Virus record (IMG/VR): IMGVR_UViG_3300022555_000003
Span: 96,001-160,000 of that record
DNA from: a virus
Taxonomy: Duplodnaviria > Caudoviricetes
Length of the DNA stretch: 64,000 bases
Reading direction: 5' to 3' (one strand)
The notes beneath the pieces were generated by a model that had not been told where the DNA came from, made no database searches, and worked only from the letters and a program-made list of their open reading frames with translations. Positions within the stretch are counted from its first letter, which is position 1. Every line of letters begins with the position of its first letter. This document shows, piece after piece, positions 23,621-59,970 of this stretch. The translations under genes and the position numbers were made by a program.

Positions 23621-24146
23621 ATCATTAACTGGCGAAAACATATACAGCACTCACTTCACTACATTAGTTAATGCAGATTTAAGTCTATTAAATTTAGATT
23701 GGGCAGATTTTCATAACAGAGATTTAAGTGAAGCAGATTTACATGGATCTGATTTACGAAGTTCAAATTTGAGTGGAGCACGTTTTCGTGGTGCCAATTT
23801 ATGCGATACAGATTTGTATAATGCAGATTTGAGTTGTGCAGATCTAAGCGGAGCAAATTTAACTGGTGCAGCTTTACATTATGCAGAGTTGCGCTATGCA
23901 AATTTGTATAATGCAGATTTGAGTTGTGCAGATCTAAGCGGAGCAATTTTATCTGAAGCAATACTATGTAATGCTAATTTATCAAATGTAGATTTATGTA
24001 GTGTGGATTTGAGGTTTGCGAATTTAAAGGGTGCAATCTTAGAGGGAATAAAAATAGATGAATTTACCTGAATTGATTCAACTACGCATATTGAGCCTGA
24101 ACAGTTAACATACCTGTTTCTCAAAGGGCTTAAATATAGAGGCTAA
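23610..24146 (+). pseudogene. Pentapeptide-repeat protein 5 with an in-frame TGA at 24069-24071
   Basis: The family C-cap IDSTTHIEPEQLTYLFLKGLKYRG* continues in frame after the TGA. Confidence 0.75.
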
Positions 24147-24258
24147 GTCGTTTGTTTTCAGTGCTTAACTCGACACAAAACGTCGTATAACGCAGTTTTT
24201 AACTGGAGTTGGGGCTCTTGTACCAGATATGCCCTAAGAATTGCTTAAACGACGTTTT
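24144..24258 (+). repeat. 115-bp palindromic element, copy 1 (followed by early promoter 24266-24304)
   Basis: TAAGTCGTTTGTTTTCAG, then an 82-bp hairpin AAAACGTCG...CGACGTTTT starting 33 nt after the first T. Confidence 0.9.
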
Positions 24259-24304
24259 ATTTTGGTTGACATTTAACCAACCAAAATGCTATACTTAAAG
24301 AGTA

Positions 24305-24772
24305 ATGAAAACCTACACAGAAGCTGAAATTAGACACAAACTAGCAACTGATGAGCGTTGGGTACGAAGGGCACTCATTAGATTGTACGAACGCCAAACA
24401 CAATCTGAGCAGAGCGCAGAGTCCACTCAAAATCACAACTGCAAGGGCTTTGCTCCGTGCGACGCTAAATGGTTTTCTCGTTTGGCAGTGTTCGTAACAA
24501 AGTACCCCAAAAAGCAGTTGACTCCAAAACAGTTGGCGTTGGTTTGGCGTCCATTTAAGAACCAGCCCGCCATAACAAAGTATGCTGGTCAGCTTATGAA
24601 GGTGATGGCAGAAGACGCAGCGGTAAAGCCAACAGTAGCCCAAATGAATTCAGCTTGCATTAGGTGTGGTGAAGAGCAGCCCATGTGTAAGTGCGAACGG
24701 AAAGCAATGGATGTTGAACACGAACGGTTGATGGAAGAAAAGGCGTTCATGTCCGAAATGATGTATTCATAA
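24305..24772 (+). CDS. Conserved-looking hypothetical early protein
   Basis: ATG directly after TATACTTAAAGAGTA; raised GC. Confidence 0.6.
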   Translation: MKTYTEAEIRHKLATDERWVRRALIRLYERQTQSEQSAESTQNHNCKGFAPCDAKWFSRLAVFVTKYPKKQLTPKQLALVWRPFKNQPAITKYAGQLMKVMAEDAAVKPTVAQMNSACIRCGEEQPMCKCERKAMDVEHERLMEEKAFMSEMMYS

Positions 24773-25162
24773 TTTATGGTCCAACCAATCACAAAAGTTT
24801 CTTTAAATAAAGTTATTTCTGGAGTTATCAAAGATTCGATAAGAACGCATGGTGACATCACGCCACAAACAATGTCATCGTTCTCAAAAAGGTTAACTGG
24901 AGAGATGACTGCTGTATTACGTAGAGCTGGTTTCGAGGTTAATTGATGTACGTTAAAACACAATTCGAAAAAGATTCTCTGATTGTTCGATACGAGCACG
25001 AACTTGTTTGGTTGAAAAATAAAATTGAGGAATTGAAATTGAAGCTAGATAAAAAACCATCAACTTCAAAACAAATTAAAGACTTGCAACGTCAAATTCG
25101 CCAAACTGAAGTTTTCATTGCATTCATTTGAAAATATAAAAAAGATATGTTATAATAGTATT

Positions 25163-25527
25163 ATGAAATGTTTATTGTTAATGTTGTTTTCTGTAGGAGC
25201 ATTGGCGCAATCGTTTGATATCTCAGACAAGAAGTTATTTTATTATTCGGTTGCAGCTCATGGTACTGGAACATATATCTAGATGCTTGGTCATCTTGGA
25301 ATCAAAATGAGGCCAATCAAACACTCCAAGGTGCAAACGGTAAATTTGATGCAAAAGGTGTTGCTATCAAAAGTGCATTCTTTGCTGGAACAACTGTTGT
25401 TGAGCTATTAATTCTGAAAAAGTATCATCCAAAATGGTTGGTAAAGACTTTTACTGTTGCCAACTTTGCTTTAGGTGGAGAATATACTGCAATAGCTATT
25501 AGTAACAAGTACAGACAAAACAATTAA
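25163..25527 (+). pseudogene. Frameshifted secreted/membrane protein
   Basis: Signal MKCLLLMLFSVGALAQ; TAG after codon 39; removing one AT from ATATAT (about 25272-25277) restores a 120-aa ORF ending TAA 25527. Confidence 0.65.
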
Positions 25528-25529
25528 TA

Positions 25530-25919
25530 ATGCAAATCAAATCCAAATCTGGTAAAATACTACATACATTTGATGATAAGACAGATCTGTATGGAGCAAA
25601 TTTAGATCGATTACATTTGCACAATGCAGATTTACGTGGAGCAGATTTGACTTGGGCAACTTTATGTCACACAAATCTGAATGACGCCGATTTAAGCCAT
25701 TCAAATTTGTGGTGGGCAGATTTGAGTTTTACATTGATGAGTGGTACAAATCTACATGGAGCAAATTTAGATTGTGTAAACATGTATTGTGCGGATCTAC
25801 GTGGAGCAAATTTAGAAAATATAGTACTAAACGAAAATACTAATATTGGTCCATCAACTAAACTTGATCCTGAGCAGCTTACATATTTGATGTTAAGAGG
25901 AATTAGATATGGAGATTAA
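25530..25919 (+). CDS. Pentapeptide-repeat protein 6
   Basis: MQIKSKSG ... [21 protein letters not shown]. Confidence 0.9.
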   Translation: MQIKSKSGKILHTFDDKTDLYGANLDRLHLHNADLRGADLTWATLCHTNLNDADLSHSNLWWADLSFTLMSGTNLHGANLDCVNMYCADLRGANLENIVLNENTNIGPSTKLDPEQLTYLMLRGIRYGD

Positions 25920-26355
25920 AACAAAATTTGGTGCAGTAATATTTATAACATTTAATGATACATTGGTTGGTGAAAATTTATGGGGAGCCGACTTTAGTCA
26001 TGCAGATTTCAATGGTATGAATTTAAGTTATGTAAATTTGTGTGAATCAAATTTATATTCTGTAAATTTCTGTCAAGCAGATTTAAGTGGAGCAGACTTA
26101 CTTGGAGCAAACTTATGTAAATCTGATTTACGTGGAGCTAATTTATTTGGAGCAGATTTATTTTGTACAAATCTAATAGGTGCTAATTTAAGTGGAGCAA
26201 ATTTATGTAATGTTGATTTACGTGGAGTCGATTTACGTGGAGCAAAGTTAGATAATGTTATAATAGATCGATTTACAAGAATTAGCAGTACAACTAAAAT
26301 AAGTAAAAAACAACTTACTTATCTATTATTAATTGGTCTCAAATATGCAAATTAA
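25909..26355 (+). CDS. Pentapeptide-repeat protein 7
   Basis: MEIKTKFG ... TRISSTTKISKKQLTYLLLIGLKYAN. Confidence 0.9.
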   Translation: MEIKTKFGAVIFITFNDTLVGENLWGADFSHADFNGMNLSYVNLCESNLYSVNFCQADLSGADLLGANLCKSDLRGANLFGADLFCTNLIGANLSGANLCNVDLRGVDLRGAKLDNVIIDRFTRISSTTKISKKQLTYLLLIGLKYAN

Positions 26356-26695
26356 CACAACAATAAGATCATTAACTGGTGAATTATTGCATGTTGGTCC
26401 CGAACTAATTCTATCCAATTTGGATTTAAGTTATGCTAATTTATATGGTAGACGTTTGAGTTTTACATTGATGAGTGGTACAAATCTACTTGGGGCAGAT
26501 TTATTTGGAGCAAACTTACGTGGTGCAGATTTAAGTGGTGCAGATTTAAGTGGTGCTGATATGCGGCAAGCAGATCTACGTGGAGCAAAGTTAGATAATG
26601 TGAAAATAGATGACGATACAAGAATTAGCAGTACAACTAAAATAAGTAAAAAACAACTTACATATTTACTTTTGTTGGGCCTTAATTATGGGTAG
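26345..26695 (+). CDS. Pentapeptide-repeat protein 8
   Basis: MQIN..IRSLTG ... TRISSTTKISKKQLTYLLLLGLNYG. Confidence 0.9.
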   Translation: MQINTTIRSLTGELLHVGPELILSNLDLSYANLYGRRLSFTLMSGTNLLGADLFGANLRGADLSGADLSGADMRQADLRGAKLDNVKIDDDTRISSTTKISKKQLTYLLLLGLNYG

Positions 26696-35151: not shown

Positions 35152-35153
35152 AA

Positions 35154-41463: not shown

Positions 41464-41726
41464 ATTATATCTTCTTTGTTTTCACAGAGTTCACACATGA
41501 TAAATCCTGCATTTCAACATATCCATCTACTTTTATTGACGGATTTGTAATGCATGTCAACCACACATGATTGGCATCATCTGAATGGGTATGATCAATA
41601 ACAAAGAGGTGTCCTTTGTACGCATCATAATATGGAGCAAATGCGGGACCAAATACATGTGATTTAAATTTATATTTCATTACTCTTTAAGTATAGCAGT
41701 TTGAGCAACAAAATGTCAACCAAAAC

Positions 41727-41841
41727 AAAACGTCGTTTAAGCAATTTTTAGAGCAGATCTAGTGCTATGACCCCAACTCGCCCCTAATAATGCGTTGTAC
41801 GACGTTTTACTTAGATTTACGTGTTGAAAACAAAAGACTTA
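41727..41841 (-). repeat. 115-bp palindromic element, copy 2 (promoter at 41681-41720)
   Basis: Same arms and the same 33+82 geometry. Confidence 0.9.
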
Positions 41842-46406: not shown

Positions 46407-46480
46407 GGAGCATAATTGGGTTCGAACCAATGACCTTCGGTTTCACAGGCCGACGTTCTTCCAACTGAACTATATGCTCC
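46407..46480 (-). tRNA. tRNA-His(GTG)
   Basis: Cloverleaf with encoded G-1 and C73. Confidence 0.9.
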
Positions 46481-46696: not shown

Positions 46697-46770
46697 TAGG
46701 CCTAAATGGATTTGAACCATTGATCCCTGCCTTATCAAGACAGTGCTTTAACCAACTAAGCTATAGACCT
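46697..46770 (-). tRNA. tRNA-Ile(GAT)
   Basis: CTGTC-TTGATAA-GGCAG anticodon arm. Confidence 0.9.
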
Positions 46771-46781
46771 AAAATTTTTTG

Positions 46782-46856
46782 CCTTCGGGGATGGATTCGA
46801 ACCACCGACGCCAGCTGTTTCAAAGCTGCGCTCTACCAAACTGAGCTACCTCGAAG
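46782..46856 (-). tRNA. tRNA-Phe(GAA)
   Basis: CAGCT-TTGAAAC-AGCTG. Confidence 0.88.
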
Positions 46857-46867
46857 AAAACTTATAG

Positions 46868-46941
46868 TCCTGGGAGATTGATTTGAACAATCGACTTCTA
46901 TCTTATGAGGATAGCACTCTACCAAGCTGAGCTATCCCAGG
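46868..46941 (-). tRNA. tRNA-Met/Ile2(CAT)
   Basis: CTATC-CTCATAA-GATAG; Met versus lysidine-Ile cannot be resolved by eye. Confidence 0.88.
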
Positions 46942-46949
46942 AAAAATTG

Positions 46950-47039
46950 TGGTGATAGGTTAGAGATTCGAACTCTAAAGGGCCCTAAGGACCGCTAGTT
47001 TTACAGACTAGTGCGACCAACCGTATTCGCGTACCTATC
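46950..47039 (-). tRNA. tRNA-Tyr(GTA)
   Basis: CTAGT-CTGTAAA-ACTAG, long variable arm, CCA encoded. Confidence 0.92.
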
Positions 47040-47044
47040 AAAAC

Positions 47045-47120
47045 TGGAGCCGGAGAAAGGACTTGAACCTTCAATATCCGCATTACAGGTGCGGCGCTTC
47101 GCCAATTAAGCTACCCCGGC
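47045..47120 (-). tRNA. tRNA-Thr(TGT)
   Basis: CCGCA-CCTGTAA-TGCGG (C33), CCA encoded. Confidence 0.88.
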
Positions 47121-47243
47121 AAAAACTTTATATTAATCTTTTAACATATAATTATATTTCAACTACATACAATATAAAAATTATACGAATTTCTCATAAA
47201 GAATATCTTTCAAAAGAAAAATTACCGATTATAATATCTAATC

Positions 47244-47331
47244 TGGAGCGGCATACGTGAATTGAACACGTTTTTAATCTTTTCAGAAGCTGGGGTGGAA
47301 ACCCAGTGATCACCCAATGACCCAATGCCGC
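47244..47331 (-). tRNA. tRNA-Gly(TCC) with an 18-nt variable region
   Basis: GCGGCAT/ATGCCGC, T73, CCA; CTGGG-TTTCCAC-CCCAG. Confidence 0.8.
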
Positions 47332-47339
47332 TCAAATTT

Positions 47340-47413
47340 TGGCGGGACCGGAGAGAATCAAACTCTCGACTTATGGGAGACAACCAAATGGTTTATCACT
47401 AACCTACGGTCCC
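47340..47413 (-). tRNA. tRNA-Asp(GTC)
   Basis: GGGACCG/CGGTCCC, G73, CCA; loop TTGTCTC. Confidence 0.82.
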
Positions 47414-47424
47414 AAACTTATTAC

Positions 47425-47700
47425 TTATTTATTAAATCCGTTTAACTGCTTATACTTTTCTAACAATATCAATACATCTTCTTTAGTTTGATTAGCACAT
47501 GCTAAATCAACTAAATGTTGAATAATTTTTACAGCACCTATATGACTTAAATCATATTCTTGAACTGCATCAACATATTCCCAATCTGAAGAACCTGCAG
47601 CATCTAGCTGGCTATGTTTAACTCTAACTTTAGCTGAAACTGTCATAACTTCTAAGTCAGAATTTCCCATTACATCACATACTCTTTTAATAATCTGCAT
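47425..47700 (-). CDS. Hypothetical protein within the tRNA cluster
   Basis: ATG 47700 avoids overlap with tRNA-Trp. Confidence 0.5.
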   Translation of the reverse strand: MQIIKRVCDVMGNSDLEVMTVSAKVRVKHSQLDAAGSSDWEYVDAVQEYDLSHIGAVKIIQHLVDLACANQTKEDVLILLEKYKQLNGFNK

Positions 47701-47706
47701 ATACTT

Positions 47707-47794
47707 TGGCACCCCCTGTCAGATTCGAACTGACTTGATTTTTACATCACTGGGTTTGGAGTCCAGCGCGGCACACCATCTCCGCCGAAAGGGC
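47707..47794 (-). tRNA. tRNA-Trp(CCA) with long variable arm
   Basis: CTGGA-CTCCAAA-CCCAG; variable hairpin TGAT-GTAAAA-ATCA; G73, CCA. Confidence 0.8.
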
Positions 47795-47809
47795 GATAAT
47801 AAACTTTAG

Positions 47810-47882
47810 CTCTCGGAGCAGGACTCGAACCTGAAACATCCTGGTTAACAGCCAGGCGCTCTACCAATTGAGCTATCCGAGA
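47810..47882 (-). tRNA. tRNA-Asn(GTT)
   Basis: CCTGG-CTGTTAA-CCAGG. Confidence 0.92.
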
Positions 47883-47896
47883 ATAGCAAACTTTAA

Positions 47897-48035
47897 TGTT
47901 GTCCCAGCAAGTCGATATATTTCTATACCACAACAACCCGGCCTTCGCGAAGTTGACGGCTTTTCAGCATCTGATCTCAAAGCCGAAGCTCTGACGTTTT
48001 TCCAGGTTCTTCACTCTGGTCCACGCGGATCAACA
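47897..48035 (-). ncRNA. Candidate structured ncRNA between tRNA-Pro and tRNA-Asn
   Basis: Closing stem TGTTGATCC/GGGACAACA; UUCG and GAAA tetraloop hairpins; GC-rich. Confidence 0.45.
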
Positions 48036-48045
48036 AAATTTTTAG

Positions 48046-48119
48046 TCGGAGAAGCAGGATTCGGACCTGCGATATTCTGTTCCCAAAACAGACGGATTAC
48101 CAGACTTTCCCATTCTCCG
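48046..48119 (-). tRNA. tRNA-Pro(TGG)
   Basis: TCTGT-TTTGGGA-ACAGA; CGGAGAA/TTCTCCG. Confidence 0.9.
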
Positions 48120-48147
48120 ATAACATTATTATTTATCTTTTCTATTT

Positions 48148-48184
48148 CTCTTTAATTATAGCAGTTTTTTCATTTCCTGTCAAA
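48148..48184 (-). promoter_or_regulatory. Early promoter heading the tRNA cluster
   Basis: TTGACA-17-TATAAT TAAAGAGA on minus. Confidence 0.75.
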
Positions 48185-48332
48185 TATTTCTTCCTCAATT
48201 AAAATCATTTCATATTTTCTCTTTATCACAGTTAGTGGAGGACGTTCAATCAATGTCAGACCGTCGCAATTACATTCAAATGAACACAGGCCTGATTCAC
48301 CAATAACAGAATTACATTTTATACAATAATAA

Positions 48333-48890
48333 TTAGTTACGAACAAATTTTTGTACTCCTAAAGTTCTCAAAACCTTCTGTACTGCAATTAATTGCCTAA
48401 AACAGTCGTCCATTGCATCATGCGTTACTTTTGGCTGCTTTACTGATACCAAATCGATAATAGTTCGCGAATCTCTAACCTGCCAATATGGCCAAGGTCG
48501 AGGCATATTATATTGTGCATAAGCATGTTCGAGCATTGAGATATCAAAAGTTGTTCCTTGTGCCCAAATTCGATCAGCTTTATTCCAAATAAATTTATGC
48601 AGTTGACTCAACGCTTCTTGCAACGAAACACGTACCAAACCTTCACCAAAAATACTATCTTGGACTGCTTGATCTTGTTGGCTCCACCATTTAATAGTAT
48701 CTGGATTAATAGTCCTTGTTGGTTGAGATTCAATATCAATTAATAGATGTAGTTGGGTAAGATCATATAGCTTTACACTCGAATTTTCATAATCCTGAAA
48801 TGGATCAAAACATACCGCTGCCATTGATACGATAGTTGCATTAACACTCGTATCTAATGTTTCTAAATCTATCATTATTGAATTGCTCAT
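48333..48890 (-). CDS. DEDDh 3'-5' exonuclease (Rv2179c/exonuclease VIII-like)
   Basis: IMIDLETL, WAQGTTFDI, RDSRT, HDAMDDC. Confidence 0.85.
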   Translation of the reverse strand: MSNSIMIDLETLDTSVNATIVSMAAVCFDPFQDYENSSVKLYDLTQLHLLIDIESQPTRTINPDTIKWWSQQDQAVQDSIFGEGLVRVSLQEALSQLHKFIWNKADRIWAQGTTFDISMLEHAYAQYNMPRPWPYWQVRDSRTIIDLVSVKQPKVTHDAMDDCFRQLIAVQKVLRTLGVQKFVRN

Positions 48891-48950
48891 GTATTAAGTA
48901 TAGCAGTTCATTATAGAATTGTCAAACTTAAATTGATAAATACTTGTACT

Positions 48951-49205
48951 ATGGCAGCCAACGGAATTTCAACATTATCAACGAAAGAACTTAAACAGAT
49001 TGCGAAACTGAATCTAGCACAAACCAAACGACAAGCTGGTGGTAATACTTCTCAACCATTTTATCGACCACTTAATACGTACGATATTAATTTATTACCT
49101 ACGCACTATATTGGAGATACAGTTGTAAATAATGTCCACGCAGGTGATCCAACTCCAGGGAGGCCCTGGACTAATAATTTATCACTACAGAATATGATAA
49201 ATTAA
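48951..49205 (+). CDS. Small late (probably virion) protein
   Basis: ATAAATA at 48936; MAANGISTL...YDINLLPTHY...PGRPW. Confidence 0.55.
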   Translation: MAANGISTLSTKELKQIAKLNLAQTKRQAGGNTSQPFYRPLNTYDINLLPTHYIGDTVVNNVHAGDPTPGRPWTNNLSLQNMIN

Positions 49206-49236
49206 ATAATGTTTATCAAAAGGAAAAAAGGAAAAT

Positions 49237-49999
49237 ATGAAACTAATTTTATTTCTAGCGCTGGCAGGCCTGGCTCACGGACAGACGCTCAACAGTGGAT
49301 CATCGGTTCTGAATGATGCTGTGAACTCGAAAGCGCCGATTGCGAACCCGACGTTTACGGGCAACGTAACGATTGGGGCTACAGTACCCAGTAACGCACC
49401 TCCGGCAAGCCTCTCTGTAAGCGGGAACGTGTATGCCGGGACACTCCCAGTCGCAACCTTCCGCAGCGGCTGGGGCGCGCCAACGGGCAACACCGACGCG
49501 CAACTCTACCTGGATCAAGCCAGCGGAACGATTTATTTCCAGTCCAGCGGGTTGTGGGCTCCGATGTCTACTGCGACACCCGTTTACGGCTGGTATGTGG
49601 ACCCTCACTGGCGCACCCGCCTGGGCTGCTAACAGACTTTACAAGGGTTCAATCTCCCGCGCTTCCGCTGGCATTTGGGACTGCTGGTACACGGGATCGA
49701 CGCCAGCAATAACTACCGGATTGGCTATACGACGATCACTGGGCTATAGGTAACGTAAATACGCGAAAGCGTTACGAGGAATTATGAAACTTCTAATCTT
49801 CTTCTTGATCGCATCGACGGCATGGGCGCAGACCATTGCCTCAACGTCAATCGGAACCTCATGCACGTTGGCGCAGGAGGCCACAGCAAATCCGACGCAG
49901 CAGACCGTCCAGTGGACCATCCCGGCGACGTAGACGGCATTGCCGTCTACGATCTCCATAAATCCAAGAGTATCCGCGATCTCCTCCACACGCACTTAA
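49237..49999 (+). mobile_element. GC-rich acquired island with two decayed signal-peptide genes
   Basis: About 55-60% GC in sampled lines versus about 30% flanks; ORFs 49237-49632 and 49784-49933; no transposase seen. Confidence 0.6.
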
Positions 50000-50558
50000 A
50001 TATTTTCCGATGTTCTTCTGTCATTATCTGTCCTTGTCGGTTATGGCGTAATACAAACCAAGCGTGGAGATAAATAAACTAGAAACCATAGTGAATAGCG
50101 GAGCGTAAGACACGCTCCTCCATATCGGATCTGCCCACAAGTCGGAATGTAAAACATCAATAATCATCGCAGAGTCCAACAAGATAATCACGGACCAGAA
50201 AACTACCAAAATTTTACCCTTTGTCATGCTCCACCTTCACATTCATTCATAAAGGTTGGCAACGCCTTAACTAATTTTGATCTGTGTTCTACATTTTCCA
50301 TTTAGATTCCCCACCCTCTTTTATTGATTGATCCTTCACCAGATGATGTTCGTTCACCTTCGCGAACACGTCTTAGTGTTTCAATTAATAGATGTATTGT
50401 GCATTCTTGGCATAAATCAGCGTTGTCAATTTCATAATTATTATGGTGTTCTATTTTGATTTTTAATCTATCCCAATATGTACCAAATGACTCTTGTTCA
50501 AATGTTATTGCTAACGAACGACAATTCGTTAGCAATATTTTACCACAATAATCACAAT

Positions 50559-51197
50559 TTATTTCTGTGTTTGTGTGCCTAGACATGTATACTTCCTAAT
50601 TGACAGAGAAATTAAACCAACACCAATTAAAAATAATGTGTTTGGTTCAGGAATAGCTGTACTATAAGACAATTTTCCAAACTCAGCAGCAGGAGAAGTA
50701 CTTGCAACTACTAATTGATTTACTGAACCTTTGGTAATATTAAATCTTACATATGATACCACACTTTGATCTCCTGTACCTGGTGGGACTAATTGAGCTC
50801 CAGTGTATTGAGCAACCAATGCAGCACCATCCCAAAGTTGAAATACATTATATGCATCGGGCGATCCTAGTAAAAATTCAATATATGTTGCTGGTGTTGT
50901 GAAAGTAATTGAAATTAAATCTGGAACTCCACATCCTCCAACCCCAATATATGTATGTGCGTAACCAGCTAATGCAGCATTACAGTTCACTTGACTTCCA
51001 GAAAAGAATGGGGCATTACCAGCAGACCAATTTCCAATTACCACATTATTAATTGTATAGGGAGATGGAGTATTATGATCTAATCCATCGAATGAAATAG
51101 TAGTTGCTCCTGGTTGACTAGTAGAATTGTTGGTAAAAGAAACTGTGGTTGCGCTAGCCAAAACTAGCGAAAATAAACTAAGCAAAAGTATTTTCAT
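50559..51197 (-). CDS. PEP-CTERM sorting-domain protein
   Basis: Signal MKILLLSLFSLVLASA; C-terminus IPEPNTLFLIGVGLISLSIRK; ATG 51197 after GGAG. Confidence 0.85.
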   Translation of the reverse strand: MKILLLSLFSLVLASATTVSFTNNSTSQPGATTISFDGLDHNTPSPYTINNVVIGNWSAGNAPFFSGSQVNCNAALAGYAHTYIGVGGCGVPDLISITFTTPATYIEFLLGSPDAYNVFQLWDGAALVAQYTGAQLVPPGTGDQSVVSYVRFNITKGSVNQLVVASTSPAAEFGKLSYSTAIPEPNTLFLIGVGLISLSIRKYTCLGTQTQK

Positions 51198-51493
51198 TAT
51201 TATCTCCAAATATTACATCGATATTTATCAAACCCAGACAAGTTTAAATGGTGTTGATTTCGAACTCTTTACGAATAGTATCAATAAGATTATCAATAGC
51301 CATTCGTCCACGATGATCTCCTACTTCATCACAAGCATCCCACGAGATTTCAGCTAAATTCAAAACTCGTTCTATTGATGTTAATTCAACTTGTTGTAGT
51401 AGATCAAGTACATTAGATGCTTTTATGCCATCTGGTTTCAATCCAATAATAATATCAACCACATCGGGCATATACTTATTTCTATCCATAATT

Positions 51494-51883
51494 TTATGCA
51501 AGTTTGAGTGGTTCAATCCAAGCTGCTAGATCGCCTTCTAGAGTTGCTGGCCATTCTTCTTCTTTAATTAGACAATAAATATTATCTGGAAGAATAATTC
51601 CAACAGCAGTCAATGCACCATTTAGTGACATTTCGTCTTCTCTAAATGCAGCCCAACAATAATTATTATTAACATCTGTTTTGCAGAATGTTTCAAACTG
51701 AGCTAGTTGAGCACTATTCCCTCCATTCAAGATGATAATAGTTTTGTCATCAGTTGCCCATTGCTTGAAATGCTTATGTTTCTTCATCGCCATCTCAGAA
51801 ATAACATGAGCAGACTGAAGACCACATTGAAGTTGAGACAAATAATAATTTGTCAAAATGTAAGCTCTGTAATTTTTATTCAT
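51494..51883 (-). CDS. Peptidyl-tRNA hydrolase type 2 (PTH2)-like protein
   Basis: LSQLQCGLQSAHV, KTIIILNGG, AAFRED, LTAVGI. Confidence 0.7.
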   Translation of the reverse strand: MNKNYRAYILTNYYLSQLQCGLQSAHVISEMAMKKHKHFKQWATDDKTIIILNGGNSAQLAQFETFCKTDVNNNYCWAAFREDEMSLNGALTAVGIILPDNIYCLIKEEEWPATLEGDLAAWIEPLKLA

Positions 51884-51893
51884 ATAAATTTAG

Positions 51894-51967
51894 TACCCAA
51901 AATAGGACTTGAACCTACAACATCTTGCTTGTAAAGCAAGCGCTCTAACCAATTGAGCTATTCGGGT
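51894..51967 (-). tRNA. tRNA-Val(TAC)
   Basis: CTTGC-TTTACAA-GCAAG. Confidence 0.92.
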
Positions 51968-51974
51968 AATTTAG

Positions 51975-52055
51975 TAGCCCCGGGAGAAGTTGAATCTCAT
52001 ACCGTCCGCCCAACTTTAAGGATCAGTTTAGAAGACTGATGTCGGGTTCGGGGCC
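51975..52055 (-). tRNA. Non-canonical tRNA-Arg(TCT)-like gene without a D-arm
   Basis: GGCCCCG/CGGGGCT acceptor; TCAGT-CTTCTAA-ACTGA; 9-nt connector in place of the D-arm; 24-nt variable region. Confidence 0.6.
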
Positions 52056-52215
52056 ATAATTTCTAAAACGATTTAACTGTGATTCTTTGCCATTTCTTAA
52101 AACTATTCCTAAAGAATGTAATATTTTTGCAAAATTAACAGGACTTGGATGATTATATTTTTTTGCTAATTCACTAAGTGAAAACCCATCATTATCACCT
52201 TGTTTTTAAATTTAG

Positions 52216-52288
52216 TTGGCCCAGACGGAATTGAACCGTCAACATCTTCATTAAAAGTGAAGCACTCTGCCAATTGAGTTATGGGCCA
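52216..52288 (-). tRNA. tRNA-Lys(TTT)
   Basis: CTTCA-CTTTTAA-TGAAG. Confidence 0.92.
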
Positions 52289-52297
52289 ATATACTAA

Positions 52298-52372
52298 TGG
52301 TAGGGAGTATTGGATTCGAACCAATAATGTCGGAGCCAAAGTCCAAAGGTTTGCCAATTAGCCTAACTCCCT
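52298..52372 (-). tRNA. tRNA-Gln(TTG)
   Basis: TTGGA-CTTTGGC-TCCGA; CCA encoded. Confidence 0.88.
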
Positions 52373-52411
52373 ATTTATTATTCTATACTATTTAAGTATA
52401 GCAGTATTTAT

Positions 52412-52801
52412 CTAATAAGTCAATCTTAAAATTTCTTTATCTTTCTTTTCTGCATACCGTATTGTTGCCCACGTTCCACTTCTAATTTCTTCTATGTTTG
52501 TTCTTGGTGCAGCAATTAATACATCAGTGCAATCAACAATGACATGATTTCGCTTTATATAATCAAGTGGTTTTAAAATTTTATCATTTTGGTCAAAATA
52601 TCCACGCTTTGACATTATAATTGGTGGATGACAAACTACATAATACCCAAGTTCTTTTGCAATTAATGCTGCTTGGATATCTGAACCAATACAATCACCA
52701 TGATGAAATTCACCATCTTTGAAAAAAGTCAAAATATTAAATATCTCTTCAATTTGAAGATCTGACATTCCTTTTTGTGTTCCAGTGAACCCAATTTTCA
52801 T
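52412..52801 (-). CDS. SLOG/DprA-like Rossmann-fold protein
   Basis: KIGFTGTQ, HHGDCIGSD, RNHVIVD, RSGTWATIRYA. Confidence 0.7.
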   Translation of the reverse strand: MKIGFTGTQKGMSDLQIEEIFNILTFFKDGEFHHGDCIGSDIQAALIAKELGYYVVCHPPIIMSKRGYFDQNDKILKPLDYIKRNHVIVDCTDVLIAAPRTNIEEIRSGTWATIRYAEKKDKEILRLTY

Positions 52802-53005
52802 TAATTTATGACCACTTTGCTACTTGAATTGTGTTTAACGTGATTAGATCTTTGAAATCTTTGAATGCTTTTGTAATTCGCTTATCATAAAAATATAAAG
52901 TGTCTCCATTTTCAAAGAAAAATTGAGCATCTTTTTTACCAACGCGCTCAATTTTGAACAACTTAATATTCAACTTTTTATATTCTTTAGCAGTCATTTA
53001 AAAAA

Positions 53006-53779
53006 TCAACCACCCACTGATTCTAAAATTATTTGATCTGTAATGATACTTTGACAAAGATCATTTATGGTATCAAAATCTGGATATTCTGGTAGCATCT
53101 TGAGATTAGCTGCTTTTTGAGCATTATCTAATTCATTATCTACTAATAATATCCAATCACTTAGAGAAAGTCCGCCATTTCGAATATAAAGCAATTCATC
53201 AGCATCATTTCTAAAAATATTCATCTTTCCACTTAGGAAGAATTCAGTTGCCATCCTTAAAATTCGAATAGTATGCATGGCATATTTCACATCATACCCA
53301 TATTTTTCAACTAATAGCTTTCGTTTTGTACCTAGTTTTCCAGTAATGCAATTAACAACAGCATTTCTTTGACTTTGTGAATATCCAATAAGTGTGTTGT
53401 ATGCTTGTTGACTTTCAAATGCTTGTCGATTTTTGATTAAACTTTTTCCTTCGGGAGTAATAATAGTATATTCATGATCTCTCAAATATAGCAAAGGAAT
53501 AACATTTGGATTAAACTTAATACACAATTTCAAAAATTTTCGTAGTTCAAAAATAGTTGATTCTGCATTGATAGTTTCCTTTTTGTCTAGGACAAAAGTA
53601 TCTTCACCAGCAACAAGTCCAGTATAATACGAATTGGGTTTTAGAATAATACCCAAGAAGTCTACATCAGAATCTTCTGTGGCTGCTCCGTAAGATTGTG
53701 AACCAACTTGTCCAACAAGGATATACTTTCCCGACTCCTTAGGAAGGTTAAAATTTACATTATATTCTTCTGTGGTCAT
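53006..53779 (-). CDS. Pol-beta-superfamily nucleotidyltransferase (T4 NrdC.11-like)
   Basis: VGSQSYG...SDVDFLG, ELRKF, NPN, YDVKYAMHTIR. Confidence 0.8.
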   Translation of the reverse strand: MTTEEYNVNFNLPKESGKYILVGQVGSQSYGAATEDSDVDFLGIILKPNSYYTGLVAGEDTFVLDKKETINAESTIFELRKFLKLCIKFNPNVIPLLYLRDHEYTIITPEGKSLIKNRQAFESQQAYNTLIGYSQSQRNAVVNCITGKLGTKRKLLVEKYGYDVKYAMHTIRILRMATEFFLSGKMNIFRNDADELLYIRNGGLSLSDWILLVDNELDNAQKAANLKMLPEYPDFDTINDLCQSIITDQIILESVGG

Positions 53780-54628
53780 AATTTTTCTACTTTAACTACT
53801 ATAGTTTCAGGCTGCCCACCACAGTATAGTTCAATTTTTATTTTGACCATCACATACTCCAATATGTTTCTGAGGACGGATCACAACATAGAGGTGTATT
53901 GCTTTTAATGGTTACATTTTTTCCAGACATCAAATTTTTTACAATCTTGTTTTTTACAATTTTTGAATCATAATATTCAGCTAAAGCCACAGCATACGGG
54001 GCAATTGCATATTCTGTTTCTCCATTGACAACGTGTTCGCAGTATTCACAATCAACAAAGCCATGTTGGACACGATGAATCCTTTCGTAACCAACTCTGC
54101 GATTAGCAACTCTCATTGACTTTCGAGCAGAACCTTGTGAATTATGTGTTGATACGTGCATAGTAGATTTTATGTGGTACACAACAAAAGACATATTATT
54201 TCCTCAATCCTTCAAGCATCGCAGTCAACGTTGCATGTTCTTCGTCACTCAACCATCTTGCGCTATAATCGTTCTGCTCAAGATATAGTGTAACGACCTT
54301 TGAAAAGTCGGACCATTTACTTCTTACTTCGTTCATTTCATTTCGTTCCTGGAGTCGCTCTCGTAATGTTTCGGGTTTATACAAGTATGTTGCACTGTAT
54401 GGGGACTTTCGTTCGGTACCATGCTTATCGTATGAGGTTCCATTTTCTAACATAATATGCCCAAACTTGTTGATCTTAACAATGTTGCTAAAACCATAGT
54501 TCATGAGCGTACTGTTATAATACCTTGCAAACCCAACTTCATCTCCAACTTTGAGTGCTCCAATATCAAACATTCTTTTCTCCTACTCTTTAAGTATAGC
54601 AATTTAGGTAAATGATGTCAACCAAAAT

Positions 54629-54743
54629 AAAACGTCGTTTAAGCAATTCTTAGGGCACACTTGGTACAATTACCCTAACTCTGGCTTTAAAATGCGTTAT
54701 ACGGCGTTTTGTGCCAATTTAGGTGTTGAAAACAAATGACTTA
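54629..54743 (-). repeat. 115-bp palindromic element, copy 3 (promoter at 54585-54622)
   Basis: Same arms and geometry; first TAA is the stop of 54741-55178. Confidence 0.9.
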
Positions 54744-55178
54744 ATTTCCATATCTAATACCTTTCATAATTAAATATGTTAGCTGTTCTGGATCTAAATT
54801 AGTAGTTGAATTAAATCTTGTATATCGATCTATTTTCACATTATCTAACTTTGCACCACGTAAATCTGCTCCACTTAAATCTGCACCACACAACTCAGCC
54901 ATATTTAAATCTGCGCCACACAACTCAGCCATATTTAAATCTGCGCCACACAAATCAGCCATATTTAAATTTGCACCACTTAAATCTGCGCCACACAAAT
55001 CAGCCATATTTAAATTTGCGCCACTTAAATCTGCGCCAATTAATATTGACCTAAATAAATTTGCTCCACTTAAATCAGAATCGTATAAATCTGCTCCACT
55101 TAAATCAGAATCACGAAGATCTGCGTGACGAAGGTCAGCTCCCCATAATTTTTCACCAACTCTAGTTTTAATTTCCAT
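54741..55178 (-). CDS. Pentapeptide-repeat protein 10
   Basis: MEIKTRVG ... [26 protein letters not shown]. Confidence 0.9.
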
Positions 55179-55494
55179 ATTTAACCCCTTTGAGTATCAG
55201 GTAGGTAAGCTGTTCTGGATCTAAATTAGTAGTTGAATTAATTCTTGTATATCGATCTACTGTCACATTTTCTAAATTTGCTCCACTTAAATCAGAATCG
55301 TATAAATCTGCTCCACTTAAATCAGAATCACGCAAATCTGCTCCACTTAATATTGACCTAAATAAATTTACTCCACGTAAATTTACTCCACGTAGATCTG
55401 CATCTCTTAAATTAGCCCAAGATAAATCTGATCCATCTAATGTGAAACGTCCTGATGTTAATAATATTTTGCCTAATTTAGATTTAATTTGCAT
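55168..55494 (-). CDS. Pentapeptide-repeat protein 11
   Basis: MQIKSKLG ... [26 protein letters not shown]. Confidence 0.9.
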
Positions 55495-55503
55495 GAAGAT
55501 AAA

Positions 55504-56205
55504 TTACTTGATAACTTTAATTCTGGTAAGCTTGGTCACATTGTCATCACAATGTTGTTTGATTTGAGCAGACAAAAATTTCTTTGTGCCAGTTCCCAAA
55601 TCCTCTTTAAAGAAGAAAAAGAAAATATCGTTGCCCATCTTAGCATTGATAATCCACGTCTGCCATTTCATGCTAAAAGTAGATTTCAAAATCTCAAACT
55701 CACCCATAATCTTTGAGCCAACAGTTCCAACATGAGCGCTGTTTTTTACAAGTTCGTCAATGTTTTCTTTATTAAGGTCGCGGGCGTAACAACTAGGCAG
55801 TGATGAAACTACCGCCAAATCATATGTGTCTACATCAGTAAACATTTCTTTAGATGCGACGCGCAACGTAGTGGACAAGAAATCATTTAACTGTCCGCCA
55901 ACCAACTTAAACAACAGGCCCTGATAATGAGTGCGAATTGCTTTGCCTTGTTCGATATGCTCAGGAGTCATTGTCTTGTTCATAAGAATATTGCGCACTT
56001 CTTCTTTGTTTGGACGATTTACAATTTTGTAATTACCATCTATCGGGTGGCCATACGTTGGTTCCTTAATGTAACCCTTGTTTAGCTCTTGGGCAGCAAC
56101 AGCCGCACCAAATACTTCATCGGGTGTAAATTCTTTTGATGGAGTTCGCTTGGGGTAAGATCCTTTTCCGTACGGTTTACGATATCTTGTGGAATTATAA
56201 TACAT
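55504..56205 (-). CDS. Early hypothetical protein, possible C-terminal OB-fold
   Basis: Behind promoter with AGGAG SD; HVGTVG.K..GEFEI...K.H....TKLTR. Confidence 0.5.
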   Translation of the reverse strand: MYYNSTRYRKPYGKGSYPKRTPSKEFTPDEVFGAAVAAQELNKGYIKEPTYGHPIDGNYKIVNRPNKEEVRNILMNKTMTPEHIEQGKAIRTHYQGLLFKLVGGQLNDFLSTTLRVASKEMFTDVDTYDLAVVSSLPSCYARDLNKENIDELVKNSAHVGTVGSKIMGEFEILKSTFSMKWQTWIINAKMGNDIFFFFFKEDLGTGTKKFLSAQIKQHCDDNVTKLTRIKVIK

Positions 56206-56269
56206 AATGTCTCCTGTTTCTGCTACTCTTTAAGTATAGCAGTTTGATTAAAGAAATGTCAACCAAAAT

Positions 56270-56384
56270 AAAACGTCGTTTAAGCAATTGTTAAGGGCTA
56301 CTTGGGGCTAATGTACCAAATATGCTCTAAAAATTGCTTAAACGACGTTTTGGGAGGAAATGACTGTTGAAAATAAAGGACTTA
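56270..56384 (-). repeat. 115-bp palindromic element, copy 4 (perfect 20-bp arms, inverted core; promoter at 56225-56262)
   Basis: AAAACGTCGTTTAAGCAATT-42 nt-AATTGCTTAAACGACGTTTT; first TAA is the stop of 56382-57074. Confidence 0.92.
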
Positions 56385-57074
56385 CTTTATTAATCTGGGT
56401 CGACCACGCGGTTTCTTGACTTCAACATTAACGCCAGCTTCTAGTTCTAGCCGTTTAGCTTCAGCAAGCAACACGTTTGCTTCGTTTTTCATCCTTGCGG
56501 CTTGTTCCAACAGGTTTTGAGAAATATTACTTTCAGTTAAAACTTCTGCCACTGTTTCAATTTGATGCTTTGGCTTTTTGGAATTTATTAAATTGGCTTG
56601 AACAGTTTGTTTGTCAATTTCCGACATACGTTTAACTGCACCTTCACCAGCTTCCATTTCTTTAAGAATTTTATTTAGCTCGTCTAACCTAACATTGTTT
56701 TTCATATCAGGTGTGACAATAATTTGACCAGTCTGAACTTTTTTGATCAAACCTTCTTTGTGGAGTGTTGTTAAAATATTTCGACCATCTGGTAACAAAT
56801 TACGAAATAATGCTTCAGCAAATTCTTTTGCTTGTTGTCCAACATCTGATTCTAATACCTTCATAACAGCATCGTGGTATGTTCTTGGTAATAAATCACT
56901 ATAACAGACCAGACACATATGCTCTTCATCTGGTACTGTTTTATACATAATAACTATTTTTTTATCGCCGTGTCGTCCGATATGTTTTGTCATATTATCC
57001 TTTTGGTTGTGGTTCAGTTTGAGGTGGCATTGAAGATGTAATGAAGCTAGATAATTTATCATACAATTTTCCAA
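56382..57074 (-). CDS. Hypothetical protein with C-terminal AT-hook-like KKPRGRPR
   Basis: Likely start MTKHIGRHGDKK; coiled C-terminus. Confidence 0.55.
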   Translation of the reverse strand: MENCMINYLASLHLQCHLKLNHNQKDNMTKHIGRHGDKKIVIMYKTVPDEEHMCLVCYSDLLPRTYHDAVMKVLESDVGQQAKEFAEALFRNLLPDGRNILTTLHKEGLIKKVQTGQIIVTPDMKNNVRLDELNKILKEMEAGEGAVKRMSEIDKQTVQANLINSKKPKHQIETVAEVLTESNISQNLLEQAARMKNEANVLLAEAKRLELEAGVNVEVKKPRGRPRLIK

Positions 57075-57183
57075 CTACGGTAAGTTCTTCAGCCCTAAAT
57101 GCTCCACGTACTGAACAAGTAGATATAATCTCTTGAAGCATTTGTAGATCATTTAATGTGATAGGAGTTTCAATGTTTTCCAT
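56995..57183 (-). CDS. Small late protein
   Basis: ATAAATA-N5-ATG; RGAFRAEEL..VGKLYDKL. Confidence 0.55.
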   Translation of the reverse strand: MENIETPITLNDLQMLQEIISTCSVRGAFRAEELTVVGKLYDKLSSFITSSMPPQTEPQPKG

Positions 57184-57702
57184 AATAATATTTATGGCGT
57201 ATTAATTTCGCCTAAAATTTTCGAAAACACCAAAGACAAAAATGTTATGTCGCTATCCATTTCAAATCCCAAAAAAACTTTATCTTTTTTAAACTCATAA
57301 AAAAATCTACCACAGGTATTTGATAATATTTTATTAATCAATAACATTTCAAACGGAAAATTACCATCAAAGAAAATATCTGAATGCGAACTTATATTGA
57401 ATTGTACAGTAGTAAAATGGTTTGGTAATCGATTTACAATTCGAGAATGTGTTATTTCTTCTTGGATTGCCATTTTTTCAAAATCAAATATGAAGCTCCA
57501 CCACAATTGCAAACTTTCTCTGTTAGTTCAACATGAGTCTCTGCAATAAATTCAATCATATCGCTAACACAATCAGGATCACCATCTAAAAATGTCCAGA
57601 TTTTATCTGCAACTGGATCGGGCAATGTCCTTAAAAATTCATATAGTTCAATTGGCATATTATTTATTTCCTGTATATCAGACCACTCTTCATATAATTC
57701 AG

Positions 57703-57776
57703 AGCCACGAGTCGGATTTGAACCGACGAATACGAGTTTTGCAGACTCGCGCCTTACCAGACTTGGCCATCGTGGC
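57703..57776 (-). tRNA. tRNA-Cys(GCA)
   Basis: CGAGT-CTGCAAA-ACTCG; T73. Confidence 0.92.
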
Positions 57777-58442
57777 TTATTACTACTTTAACTTATTATC
57801 AATAATTATGTTATCAGCTATTTGTCGAACACTTTCATTATATCCATTTCCACCACAGTATTTTGCTAGAAAATCATATTCACCTGTGATGCCTGCCCAC
57901 ACTTCTGTGGTTTCAAGAGCATCCATTCTATCTTTATCTGTAAGTAGAAATGTATAAAACAATATCACGCAAATCTTCAACGGTTATTATATTTAATCCG
58001 ATCGTACCAACCTACTATACAGTCTGGATTATTCCCTTTTGGTTTCTGATCTAAATATAATTTAAGTTTATCGGTTGCGTTCTGCCCTGACATAATTATA
58101 TCGGGTATTAATGCCATAGTATTCACCCATTCAATTTGACAGCATCACTACCTGAAGAAAATAATCGACATCCCAAACAGTTAATCGCGTTTTGTCATAA
58201 CATTTAGCATAGTGTATAGGAGCGACAATATCACATGCTTCATGAAATGTGGCGGCTTCAGCTGAACCTAAATATTCTGCTTGGGCACTACATCCGTTTG
58301 TAACGAATCCTTCCATCCAAACTTCCCATACTTTCATACTAGATTCCAATAAGCCAATTTTTAACAATATACCATGCTATTGCTAATCCAATAAAAACTC
58401 CAAGTAATATTAACAAAAACTTATCATATATTTCCTCTCAAA

Positions 58443-58475
58443 TTAGTTGAGCACCCTAATTGAGTGCTCAACTAA
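58443..58475 (-). terminator. Terminator-like hairpin
   Basis: TTAGTTGAGCAC-loop-GTGCTCAACTAA downstream of the VWA gene. Confidence 0.65.
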
Positions 58476-58482
58476 TTATTAT

Positions 58483-59799
58483 TTATTTTGAATCGTACTC
58501 TACAGTAATTCCATGTGGAGCAACAAACCCAGGATTGCTATGGACAACGAAAACTGTTTCACAATATTCTTCTGGTCCAAAGCCATCAAAGGAATAACCA
58601 TCTGTCATCATAATGAAACGCTTAGGCTCAACACCATTTGCAATCATCCAATCCCAATTGCATTGAAAACTAGTGCCGCCACCGCCTTGTGGTTGATAAT
58701 CACCAATGTCATCTAAATTGTCACTAGTGAATACTTGTGGATTATAAACCTGGGTATCAAAGCACCAAATGTGGAGTTTATATGATGTGAACTGAGTCAT
58801 AATGCCTTTGACTTCACCCAAAAAATCCCTAATCATTGATTCAGAAATTGATCCGCTTAAATCAAGCGCAACAGCCACATCAACTTCTTGTTCAACTGTC
58901 ATACCAGGAAGAATAGCATCAACGTCCCAACCTTTTCTTGAAAGGACCATAAAGCTATAATCGCTCAATATTGTTGAATTCAAACTCTGTTGCAAAATTT
59001 CGCGCCAGTTCATTTTCGGTTCAGTGAGATCTTTAATCAAACGCTGAACACCAAGCGGAACATCACCTGCCTTGCATTGCTTGGCAGCATTCAACACTGC
59101 GTCGCGAATTTCATTTTTGATTTCTTTTAGTTCTTCTTTCGACAAGTAAGGCCGACCACTGCCGTCCTTTTTTCCATCACCTTTGTCATTGCCATCAGCA
59201 TCGCTGTCGCCTGAACCTTCATCTTCGCCCTTCATGTGTTCGTCTAAAAGCTGTCCAAACAAATCTGAAATGTCAATCTTTTGTGCATTTTTATAAAGAT
59301 CGTCGTACACTTCTTCTGCGCACATACCAACATACTTTTTGTCCAGCAAGCACGGAACCGAAGTGACCAACTCACCAATTTTGTTGTCAACCAAATCTTG
59401 ATTCACAACATAATCAGCAGCCACGTTGAATAACCGATGGTCGCGAAAATCAACACGTCCCATATGATCGTAGATGCAATGTAGGATTTCATGACCAAAA
59501 AGGAATTCAACTTCAGCTTGCCGAAGCTTCATGATAAATTCGTGATTGTAATAAAAATTTCGCCCGTCCGTTGCTGCGGTACTGCACCACGCATCAGCGG
59601 GTACCATCTTCAACCTGCATACTACGTTTCCAAAAAATGGCTTGTTGAACAACAACGAAACCCTTGACGAAATAAGCCTGTCTTTAACTTGACTTGCAAT
59701 GTTAGCTGGAATGGGCTTATCTGTAAGCTTTGCTTCTTGGTAAGCCTTGCCAGCTTTAGTTGTTTTTCCTACTGCGGTCGTTTTATTTGTTGTGCTCAT
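58483..59799 (-). CDS. Metallopeptidase (HExxH) + VWA domain protein (DUF2201-like)
   Basis: TAATDG, HEILH, acidic linker, MIDAS DLSGS, GGGGTSF, MTDGY. Confidence 0.88.
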   Translation of the reverse strand: MSTTNKTTAVGKTTKAGKAYQEAKLTDKPIPANIASQVKDRLISSRVSLLFNKPFFGNVVCRLKMVPADAWCSTAATDGRNFYYNHEFIMKLRQAEVEFLFGHEILHCIYDHMGRVDFRDHRLFNVAADYVVNQDLVDNKIGELVTSVPCLLDKKYVGMCAEEVYDDLYKNAQKIDISDLFGQLLDEHMKGEDEGSGDSDADGNDKGDGKKDGSGRPYLSKEELKEIKNEIRDAVLNAAKQCKAGDVPLGVQRLIKDLTEPKMNWREILQQSLNSTILSDYSFMVLSRKGWDVDAILPGMTVEQEVDVAVALDLSGSISESMIRDFLGEVKGIMTQFTSYKLHIWCFDTQVYNPQVFTSDNLDDIGDYQPQGGGGTSFQCNWDWMIANGVEPKRFIMMTDGYSFDGFGPEEYCETVFVVHSNPGFVAPHGITVEYDSK

Positions 59800-59855
59800 T
59801 ATGTTCCCTTACTTAACTAGTATAGCAAACCCACCCCACAAACGTCAACCTGTTC

Positions 59856-59970
59856 TAAACTCTTTGTTTTCAACAGCAAATTTGCTGTAAAACGCCGTAT
59901 AATGCATTCTTTGCCCGTACCTGGGGCTAATGTACTACTTGGGCCCAAAGAATTGCTTAAACGACGTCTG
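59856..59970 (+). repeat. 115-bp palindromic element, copy 5 (opposite orientation to the adjacent promoter 59811-59848)
   Basis: TAAACTCTTTGTTTTCAACA, then the 82-bp hairpin at 59889-59970. Confidence 0.85.

Follow-up and report, generated by a model that had tools for sequence, protein, structure and literature searches.

An early region in the genome of a freshwater, T4-like jumbo phage carries five copies of a palindromic element which, judged from their sequence, are probably the upstream halves of lineage-specific regulatory cassettes of ca 165–170 bp, belonging to the promoter early stem-loop (PeSL) type and distinguished by an unusually long hairpin. The stretch of DNA concerned, hereafter the window, is 64,000 bp in length and comprises bases 96,001–160,000 of a 242,080-bp IMG/VR virus record (IMGVR_UViG_3300022555_000003), the record being estimated to be 74% complete and the window having a G+C content of ~ 34%. 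The element family, the edges of its members, the docking of early promoters upon them, recent copying between them, insertions and deletions at their positions and constraint on two of their parts, the box and the arms, are all directly apparent in this analysis. PeSL cassettes that shuffle genes in T4-type phages are already known, and have been proposed as the chief driver of gene shuffling in the plastic parts of those genomes; the forms described so far are short stem-loops from cultured phages only, and what is new here is a long, constrained form of the hairpin. In the present case, an uncultured freshwater jumbo phage and one close relative (phage B) allow the copied unit, its edges and three cassette-level gain or loss events to be read directly. 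Moreover, the constraint on parts of the hairpin and on the upstream box is not explained by a simple terminator–promoter model and, being small and clonable, the element of 115–170 bp is an object with which to ask whether cassettes of this kind have functions beyond ending and restarting transcription.

Architecture of the element and its early promoters

Each unit spans ~ 115 nt and consists of a TAAGTCnTTTGTTTTCAA box, an offset of 33 nt and an imperfect hairpin of 81–82 nt with an A-tract, a GC-rich base and a U-tract. (Below, copies 1–5 are those of the window, g followed by a number gives a genome coordinate and B marks a copy in phage B.) The five copies that had been proposed in an earlier reading of the window, the original prediction, all align over ~ 115 nt at the positions given in Table 1. 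In each of the five, 33 nt separate the first T of the box from the hairpin and the hairpin is 82 nt long; the exactness of this geometry, which had been put forward as a property of the element, holds within the window and relaxes elsewhere, where hairpins are of 81–82 nt, one spacer in phage B is 12 nt shorter and two boxes are inverted. Similarly, the predicted box motif, TAAGTCnTTT(G/A)TTTTCA, is shared by four window copies, the fifth beginning TAAACTC instead of TAAGTC. The hairpin opens with AAAACG(T/C)CG and closes with ACGACGTTTT, or in copy 5 with ACGACGTCTG. The 17-mer of its right arm, AATTGCTTAAACGACGT, occurs six times in the window against an expectation of 0.27, a count of six or more being reached in none of 100 shuffles; the sixth occurrence is the left arm of copy 4, in which the two arms form a perfect palindrome.

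Beyond the window, the original prediction had proposed a search of the full genome and the building of a covariance model. Mismatch searches together with a model built from 12 copies give exactly ten copies in the 242-kb genome, at 43074, 50765, 51380, 92353, 120144, 137841(−), 150743(−), 152384(−), 155856 and 231083, and the model finds seven in phage B. Identity among the ten dispersed copies ranges from 60% to 97%. The right arm, which had been called invariant, deviates in three of the ten (one mismatch in g92353, ATACGCTT... in g231083 and ACACCCTTAAACGGCG in g50765) and is otherwise near-invariant in this genome, an evenness which may be due in part to its position at about −64 to −45 of a promoter. 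In addition, g231083 is 1 nt shorter than the other genome copies, and in g50765 and g51380 the box is inverted (TGAAAACAAAG) and lies 14–15 nt ahead of the hairpin, the promoter of g51380 directly adjoining the hairpin.

The early promoters with which the element is associated have the consensus TTGACA, a spacing of 17–18 nt and TGnTATACT. Such a promoter lies 7 nt past the hairpin in nine of the ten genome copies and six of the seven copies in phage B (15/17 in total). Within the window the figure is four of five, as had been predicted; copy 5 has its promoter at the other side, reading away. Indeed, the two copies without a downstream promoter are one orthologous pair, and both have a promoter at the box end instead. 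Two further copies, g92353 and g231083, lie between back-to-back early promoters, the second of which is 8–9 nt from the box and reads away from it. Every copy, in other words, adjoins an early promoter at one or both ends. Genome-wide there are ~ 30 near-identical early promoters with a conserved consensus of ~ 60 nt, GGTTGACATTT..CAAACTGCTATACTTAAAGAGTA, of which ~ 9 carry the hairpin, and since so few of them do so, hairpin and promoter are separable modules. The TGAAAACAAAG box is also found 21–33 nt upstream of the −35 of some hairpin-less promoters, in two different reading frames.

Two side observations concern these promoters. The sequence GTGAAAACAAAGAAGATAT, the reverse complement of the core of the element's box, occurs at 41235–41262 and 41462–41489 (−) of the window, just upstream of two hairpin-less early promoters, and because it lies in different reading frames of the upstream genes it is conserved as DNA. 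Secondly, after copies 1 and 2 the downstream ATG is 9 nt past the −10 (TATACTTAAAGAGTAATG; 24290–24307 (+) and 41678–41695 (−) of the window), such that the early mRNAs starting there would be leaderless or nearly so, other early units having a AACAGGAGAT ribosome site.

PeSLs have been described in the T4-type phages RB49/phi1, T4/PST and KVP40/nt-1, where their stem-loops are short (Gn-loop-Cn or A3-4G3-loop-C3T3-4) and lie anywhere around the promoter (Arbiol et al. 2010, PMC2839356; Comeau et al. 2014, PMC4122927). The present element resembles them in uniting an upstream stop codon, a stem-loop and a near-consensus sigma-70 early promoter in one composite, in its many dispersed copies among small early genes, in that its copies bound the indels which separate close relatives (three events between this genome and phage B) and in the dual role proposed for it, as terminator or insulator and as recombination substrate. 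It differs in having a hairpin of 81–82 nt with conserved, A/T-rich arms of 20 nt, fixed mismatches and a semi-conserved apex, in that this hairpin is always upstream of the −35, in that only about a third of the early promoters of the phage carry it and in that a promoter adjoins the box end of some copies. A further difference is the box itself, conserved over 19 nt and standing ahead of the hairpin at a fixed 33-nt offset.

In the reading that we favour, the box would supply the stop codon of the upstream early gene or come after it. The base of the hairpin is built like an intrinsic terminator (an A-tract, CGUCGU paired with ACGACG, and U4AU4), such that the long imperfect hairpin could end and cap the upstream transcript and shield the next promoter from read-through. 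Its U/T-tract would double as the A/T-rich upstream region of the near-consensus sigma-70 extended −10 early promoter, from which transcription would restart 7 nt past the hairpin. Since the dispersed copies share 60–97% identity, homologous recombination can use them, and the phage's own recombination would presumably convert one copy to another and insert, delete or swap the genes between them. Terminator activity, promoter activity and the route of recombination are, in each case, predicted. Canonical short terminators are scarce in the early region of the window.

Copying of the cassette and gene gain or loss at its copies

Phage B, the one close relative found, comes from Joint Genome Institute (JGI) sample 3300045993 as three contigs of ~ 18–20 kb, with ~ 70–80% nucleotide identity to the present phage in aligned, mostly coding stretches. 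Five of its seven copies are orthologous to g43074, g137841, g150743, g152384 and g155856; phage B being available as fragments only, five of the ten genome sites (g50765, g51380, g92353, g120144 and g231083) are without an orthologous comparison.

Orthologous pairs are 63–76% identical, whereas two pairs within a single genome, g92353/g120144 and B385/B17251, are 97% and 96% identical, respectively. In both of these near-identical pairs the identity begins exactly at TAAGTC, with a sharp edge; it ends at the −35 in g92353/g120144 and a few bases past the −10 in B385/B17251. From where the identity starts and ends it follows that the unit converted or duplicated is the element together with its promoter, ~ 130–170 nt. 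On their left, g92353 and g231083 have paralogous flanks, yet the element of g92353 matches g120144, and this disagreement between the kinship of flank and of element points to short-tract gene conversion. The analogy with PeSL cassettes drawn in the original prediction is thereby upheld, both in the copied unit being the element plus an early promoter and in the copies marking the seams of gene gain and loss relative to phage B.

There are three such events. At the first, phage B has five genes without homologues here, placed between its copies at 14891 and 17251 of contig L045, where the present genome has the single copy g152384. The five-gene block (L045 15076–17222), bracketed by its two element–promoter cassettes, has visibly G+C-richer spacers and looks like a recently acquired foreign cassette. 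At the second, a pentapeptide-repeat gene lies between a 699-residue TerD-domain gene and g43074 here and is lacking in phage B, whose 699-residue gene itself stops on the element TAA; in both phages, in other words, the gene before the element ends at that TAA. At the third, a copy in phage B (B18110) stands directly past the stop codon of the orthologue of a 233-residue gene, the present genome having at this place TAA, 9 nt and the next ATG. Gene order upstream of g137841 also differs, with an RF-1-domain gene and pentapeptide genes swapped such that the phage B orthologue of copy 2 comes after two pentapeptide genes instead of the RF-1-domain gene.

In a different account of these seams, the element would be mobile but non-autonomous, or would serve as a structure-specific recombination site, similar to miniature inverted-repeat transposable elements or to the attC sites of integrons. 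An enzyme acting on the folded hairpin would then move the element and capture promoterless open reading frames (ORFs), which would afterwards end at its TAA. In keeping with this are the sharp 5′ edge at TAAGTC in unrelated contexts, the at least four unrelated kinds of gene which end exactly on the element TAA, a gene-sized indel running from stop codon to stop codon and the conserved extrahelical bases of the hairpin. The enzyme for which the original prediction suggested looking, a recombinase or HUH nuclease encoded elsewhere in the genome, is however absent from the 242-kb record (itself an estimated 74% of the genome), in which there is no match to Phage_integrase (PF00589, with controls positive in 14/14 genomes), Resolvase (PF00239) or the HUH Y1 transposase domain Y1_Tnp (PF01797, controls positive). 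Neither a target-site duplication nor a shared flanking repeat is seen at the copies. The comparison of empty with filled sites, also suggested, yields one empty site, that opposite B18110, and this is a replacement rather than a clean excision, the 3′ side in phage B ending at the contig end. Moreover, the element is never found away from an early promoter, the copied tract takes in the promoter, as homology-driven conversion would predict, and neither pattern scans of prokaryote genomes and metagenome contigs nor the model applied to distant relatives gave a copy. Enzyme-directed mobility of this kind is, on balance, very improbable.

Comparison with known repeats runs along the same lines. 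Integron attC sites need the tyrosine recombinase IntI; the present element is like them in being an imperfect hairpin whose geometry is conserved, which has extrahelical bases and which closes gene cassettes at their 3′ end, often overlapping the stop codon, and is unlike them in that no tyrosine recombinase is encoded here and the cassettes carry their own promoter. Correia (CREE) and ERIC miniature repeats have terminal inverted repeats, in the case of Correia with a TA target duplication. Like the element, they are dispersed imperfect palindromes, ~ 100–130 bp in size and situated at gene ends, in which promoter elements may be present and which may be co-transcribed to give a long hairpin. 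The element departs from them in that its box stands outside the inverted repeat, in showing neither a duplication nor a known transposase and in being limited to two related phages. Rearranged forms were also sought, exchange between neighbouring copies being a source of mini-circles in PeSL cassettes. The contigs used were unitig-like DNA contigs of four freshwater runs; they break at the repeats, with joints that have only 24–35 nt on one side, and such joints between copies were rejected as graph ambiguities.

Constraint on the box and hairpin, and competing explanations

Constraint was measured on four orthologous pairs. Identity between orthologues is 73–89% in the box, 70–95% in the left arm and 80–100% in the right arm, falling to 55–66% in the apex, 0–57% in the spacer and 33–66% in the core flanks. 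Because the adjacent homologous, mostly coding DNA is ~ 70–80% identical, selection acts on the box and arms, the remainder being near saturation. Despite the saturated core, hairpin length is held at 81–82 nt, apart from two single-base deletions. All copies share one outline of the fold, in which a base of 10 bp is followed by an A.A mismatch, 3 bp and a bulged C, and above these come a variable helix, an internal loop and, at the apex, a UUGG/CCAG hairpin; the A.A mismatch and the bulged C are retained in most copies. Averaged over the copies, the cores fold better than their shuffled versions (mean z −1.37), though this is not so in each, and compensatory changes can be seen by eye in the inner helix of one orthologous pair. 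In g152384 it is the left arm that exactly complements the right one, and in B14601 and B3252 the right arm that is complementary, or nearly so, to the canonical left arm. On occasion, accordingly, one arm has been corrected to suit the other, and this in both directions, an argument that pairing matters rather than the sequence of one arm. Among the families of Rfam, tRNAs alone reach the gathering score, and its E-value mode returns generic long-hairpin (miRNA precursor) noise. A comparison of sense G.U with A.C pairs (43 and 21 cells, respectively) as an indicator of the strand was set aside as biased by the choice of structure and by shared ancestry.

Several observations sit uneasily with the PeSL-type reading. 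Three of the ten genome copies need no terminator, namely g92353 and g231083, between their back-to-back promoters, and g155856, which is antisense behind a canonical terminator and is nevertheless conserved in phage B. The 5′ box is conserved and is given no role past the stop codon by the cassette model, and no PeSL stem-loop described so far comes near the 82 nt of this hairpin. As to the fold, 88% of stem cells are paired, but covariation is no greater than in shuffles; of the 16 copies counted, five retain a C.A mismatch without compensation; and several hairpins fold no better than shuffled sequence. What this reading leaves unexplained, in sum, is the conserved box, its fixed offset, the three non-terminating copies and the TGAAAACAAAG box at hairpin-less promoters.

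These are the features on which a second explanation draws, that box and arms are the recognition site of a host or phage factor, which we regard as unlikely. As DNA, the site would be an upstream regulatory site serving whichever early promoter adjoins either end; as RNA, it would act in 3′-end processing or regulated termination, for example as a helix cut by RNase III, like the R sites of T7, or as a factor-controlled attenuator. The contrast in identity between box and arms (70–100% in the latter) and spacer and core flanks (0–66%, with ~ 75–80% in the surrounding homologous, mostly coding DNA) suits such a site, as do the fixed 7–9 nt distances to an early promoter at one or both ends of every copy, the placement of the TGAAAACAAAG box ahead of hairpin-less promoters in two frames, the retained A.A mismatch and bulged C, and the maintenance of length around a saturated core. 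It is countered by the want of a candidate factor, by arms that lie ~ 60 bp apart, unlike the usual dimer operator, and by g152384 and B14601, in each of which one arm has come to be an exact complement of its partner (the left arm in the former, the right in the latter), giving pairing precedence over sequence. The resemblance to the consensus of integration host factor (IHF), which the original prediction had itself called partial, is weak. The T4 proteins MotA and AsiA (PF09114, PF09010) have no match in the record, though the same search matched in no control genome either. A MotA-box reading of TTGCTTAA in the right arm is disfavoured by the spacing, the only TAnnnT being 9–10 bp away and a MotA box (TGCTTtA) needing to lie 11–13 bp upstream of the −10.

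The R sites of T7 are RNase III processing hairpins between early genes, and are not known to be followed by U-tracts or new promoters. The likeness lies in conserved, long, interrupted hairpins with fixed internal mismatches at the 3′ ends of early cistrons, seen here from sequence alone. The original prediction had gone further and taken the strict spacing, with its divergent cores, to suggest a protein-bound site (for recombination, as an origin or for packaging) or a non-autonomous mobile element rather than a simple terminator. None of the tests supports this, there being no recombinase or HUH gene, no target-site duplication, a distribution restricted to one lineage and a geometry that relaxes; the conserved box and arms and the three copies that are not terminators keep it in consideration. 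A combined form, in which box, fixed offset and hairpin, with its retained A.A mismatch and bulged C, are the docking site of a putative factor that couples early 3′-end formation to the adjacent promoter or promoters in either orientation, or else works upon the folded strand and captures promoterless ORFs in the manner of an integron, though by no known integrase, seems to us rather improbable.

At the opposite extreme, the copies might be functionless and in decay, what is left of the 3′ flank of a single gene (probably a pentapeptide-repeat paralogue) that was spread passively, together with the promoter, by segmental duplication. The genes ahead of g43074, g120144 and g150743 encode paralogous pentapeptide-repeat proteins with a common C-terminus of 11 residues, and part of this C-terminus recurs at the end of a 76-residue ORF ahead of another copy; both are in keeping with such an origin, as is the lack of covariation. 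It is, nonetheless, an improbable explanation, in that the same pattern of conserved box and arms and saturated core recurs in four independent orthologous pairs, length is largely maintained, the cores on average fold better than shuffled ones and most of the at least 13 pentapeptide loci in the genome are without the element.

Distribution of the element and genes around the window copies

The element is confined, in the searches made, to this phage and phage B. The covariance model finds no copy in two loci from relatives at ~ 60% protein identity, nor in 80 loci (1.24 Mb) of more distant relatives. A pattern scan of 241 million metagenome records gave 22 matches, all of them due to chance, and one of a single genome from each of 185,579 prokaryote species gave none; exact and gapped pattern scans of viral contigs returned phage B only. 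No additional contigs of phage B came from protein-pattern searches around genome positions 152 kb and 231 kb, and megablast of the region against cultured phages gave no match, the best protein relatives being jumbo phages such as PA5oct and Atu_ph07 at ~ 43% identity. Matches to TAAGTCA.TTATTTTCAT at 192–195 kb of the genome are unrelated, since they lie antisense to the codons for N-terminal leaders in late genes. The promoter type is, from these comparisons, older than the element: a relative at ~ 60% protein identity has TTGACA..TGCTATACT ahead of its DUF2201 gene and a classic short G5/C5 hairpin right before another TTGACA. Freshwater and lake metagenomes from four separate studies, 2016–2020, contain this phage genotype without a single difference over long contigs (41200–61100 of the window), and the sequencing runs in which the phage occurs are all of DNA.

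Table 1. Window copies of the element, with associated promoters, gene and terminator (window coordinates).
Feature	Position	Strand	Remarks
Copy 1	24144..24258	+	g120144; box, 33-nt offset and 82-nt hairpin; 97% identical to g92353 (outside the window)
Early promoter of copy 1	24266..24295	+	TTGACA ... TGCTATACT; ATG of next gene at 24305, 9 nt past −10
Pentapeptide-repeat gene	23601..24146	+	Ends in TAA of copy 1; in-frame TGA at 24069–24071
Copy 2	41727..41841	−	g137841; begins 10 nt past stop of RF-1-domain gene 41851–42213
Early promoter of copy 2	41690..41719	−	Consensus type
Copy 3	54629..54743	−	g150743; TAA is stop of pentapeptide gene 54741–55178; phage B orthologue G001:385
Early promoter of copy 3	54593..54621	−	Consensus type
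Copy 4	56270..56384	−	g152384; arms a perfect 20-nt palindrome; TAA is stop of 230-residue gene 56382–57074
Early promoter of copy 4	56233..56262	−	Consensus type
Copy 5	59856..59970	+	g155856; antisense to local genes; between MoxR-type AAA gene and DUF2201 gene
Box-end promoter of copy 5	59819..59848	−	7 nt from box end; reads away, into DUF2201 gene
Canonical short bidirectional terminator	59986..60019	−	Between AAA gene and copy 5

At g43074, g150743 and g152384 the upstream gene has its stop codon in the TAA of the box, and at g120144 this TAA ends a homologous frame. Of the three window copies for which this overlap had been predicted, copies 3 and 4 (stops at 54741 and 56382) have it; in copy 1 the TAA at 24144–24146 only ends the homologous frame, which carries an earlier in-frame TGA. 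This TGA corresponds to Arg in the paralogues, and the next 25 codons are intact and homologous up to the element TAA, which suggests a recent nonsense mutation or read-through.

The pentapeptide-repeat paralogues stand among early genes, several of their loci in tandem, and many end with the shared 11-residue C-terminus; those in the window are at 18678–19617, 19739–20137, 25581–26656, 42203–42622(−) and 54741–55494(−). The gene directly upstream of copy 2 (41851–42213, −) encodes a 120-residue RF-1-domain protein, a GGQ-type peptidyl-tRNA hydrolase similar to ArfB, which is 85% identical in phage B and is there placed differently relative to the pentapeptide genes. The position and orientation of copy 5 are kept in phage B, where it is again antisense. 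Its neighbours, a MoxR-type AAA ATPase and a DUF2201 metallopeptidase/VWA gene (58483–61176, −), form a pair that is widely conserved in jumbo phages, the DUF2201 protein having matches in 773 phage records. The 699-residue protein involved in the second event is encoded outside the window, at 40550–42649 of the genome, and the TerD domain is its only Pfam match. Finally, 14 tRNA genes lie between 46406 and 57776 (−) of the window, interspersed with early promoters.

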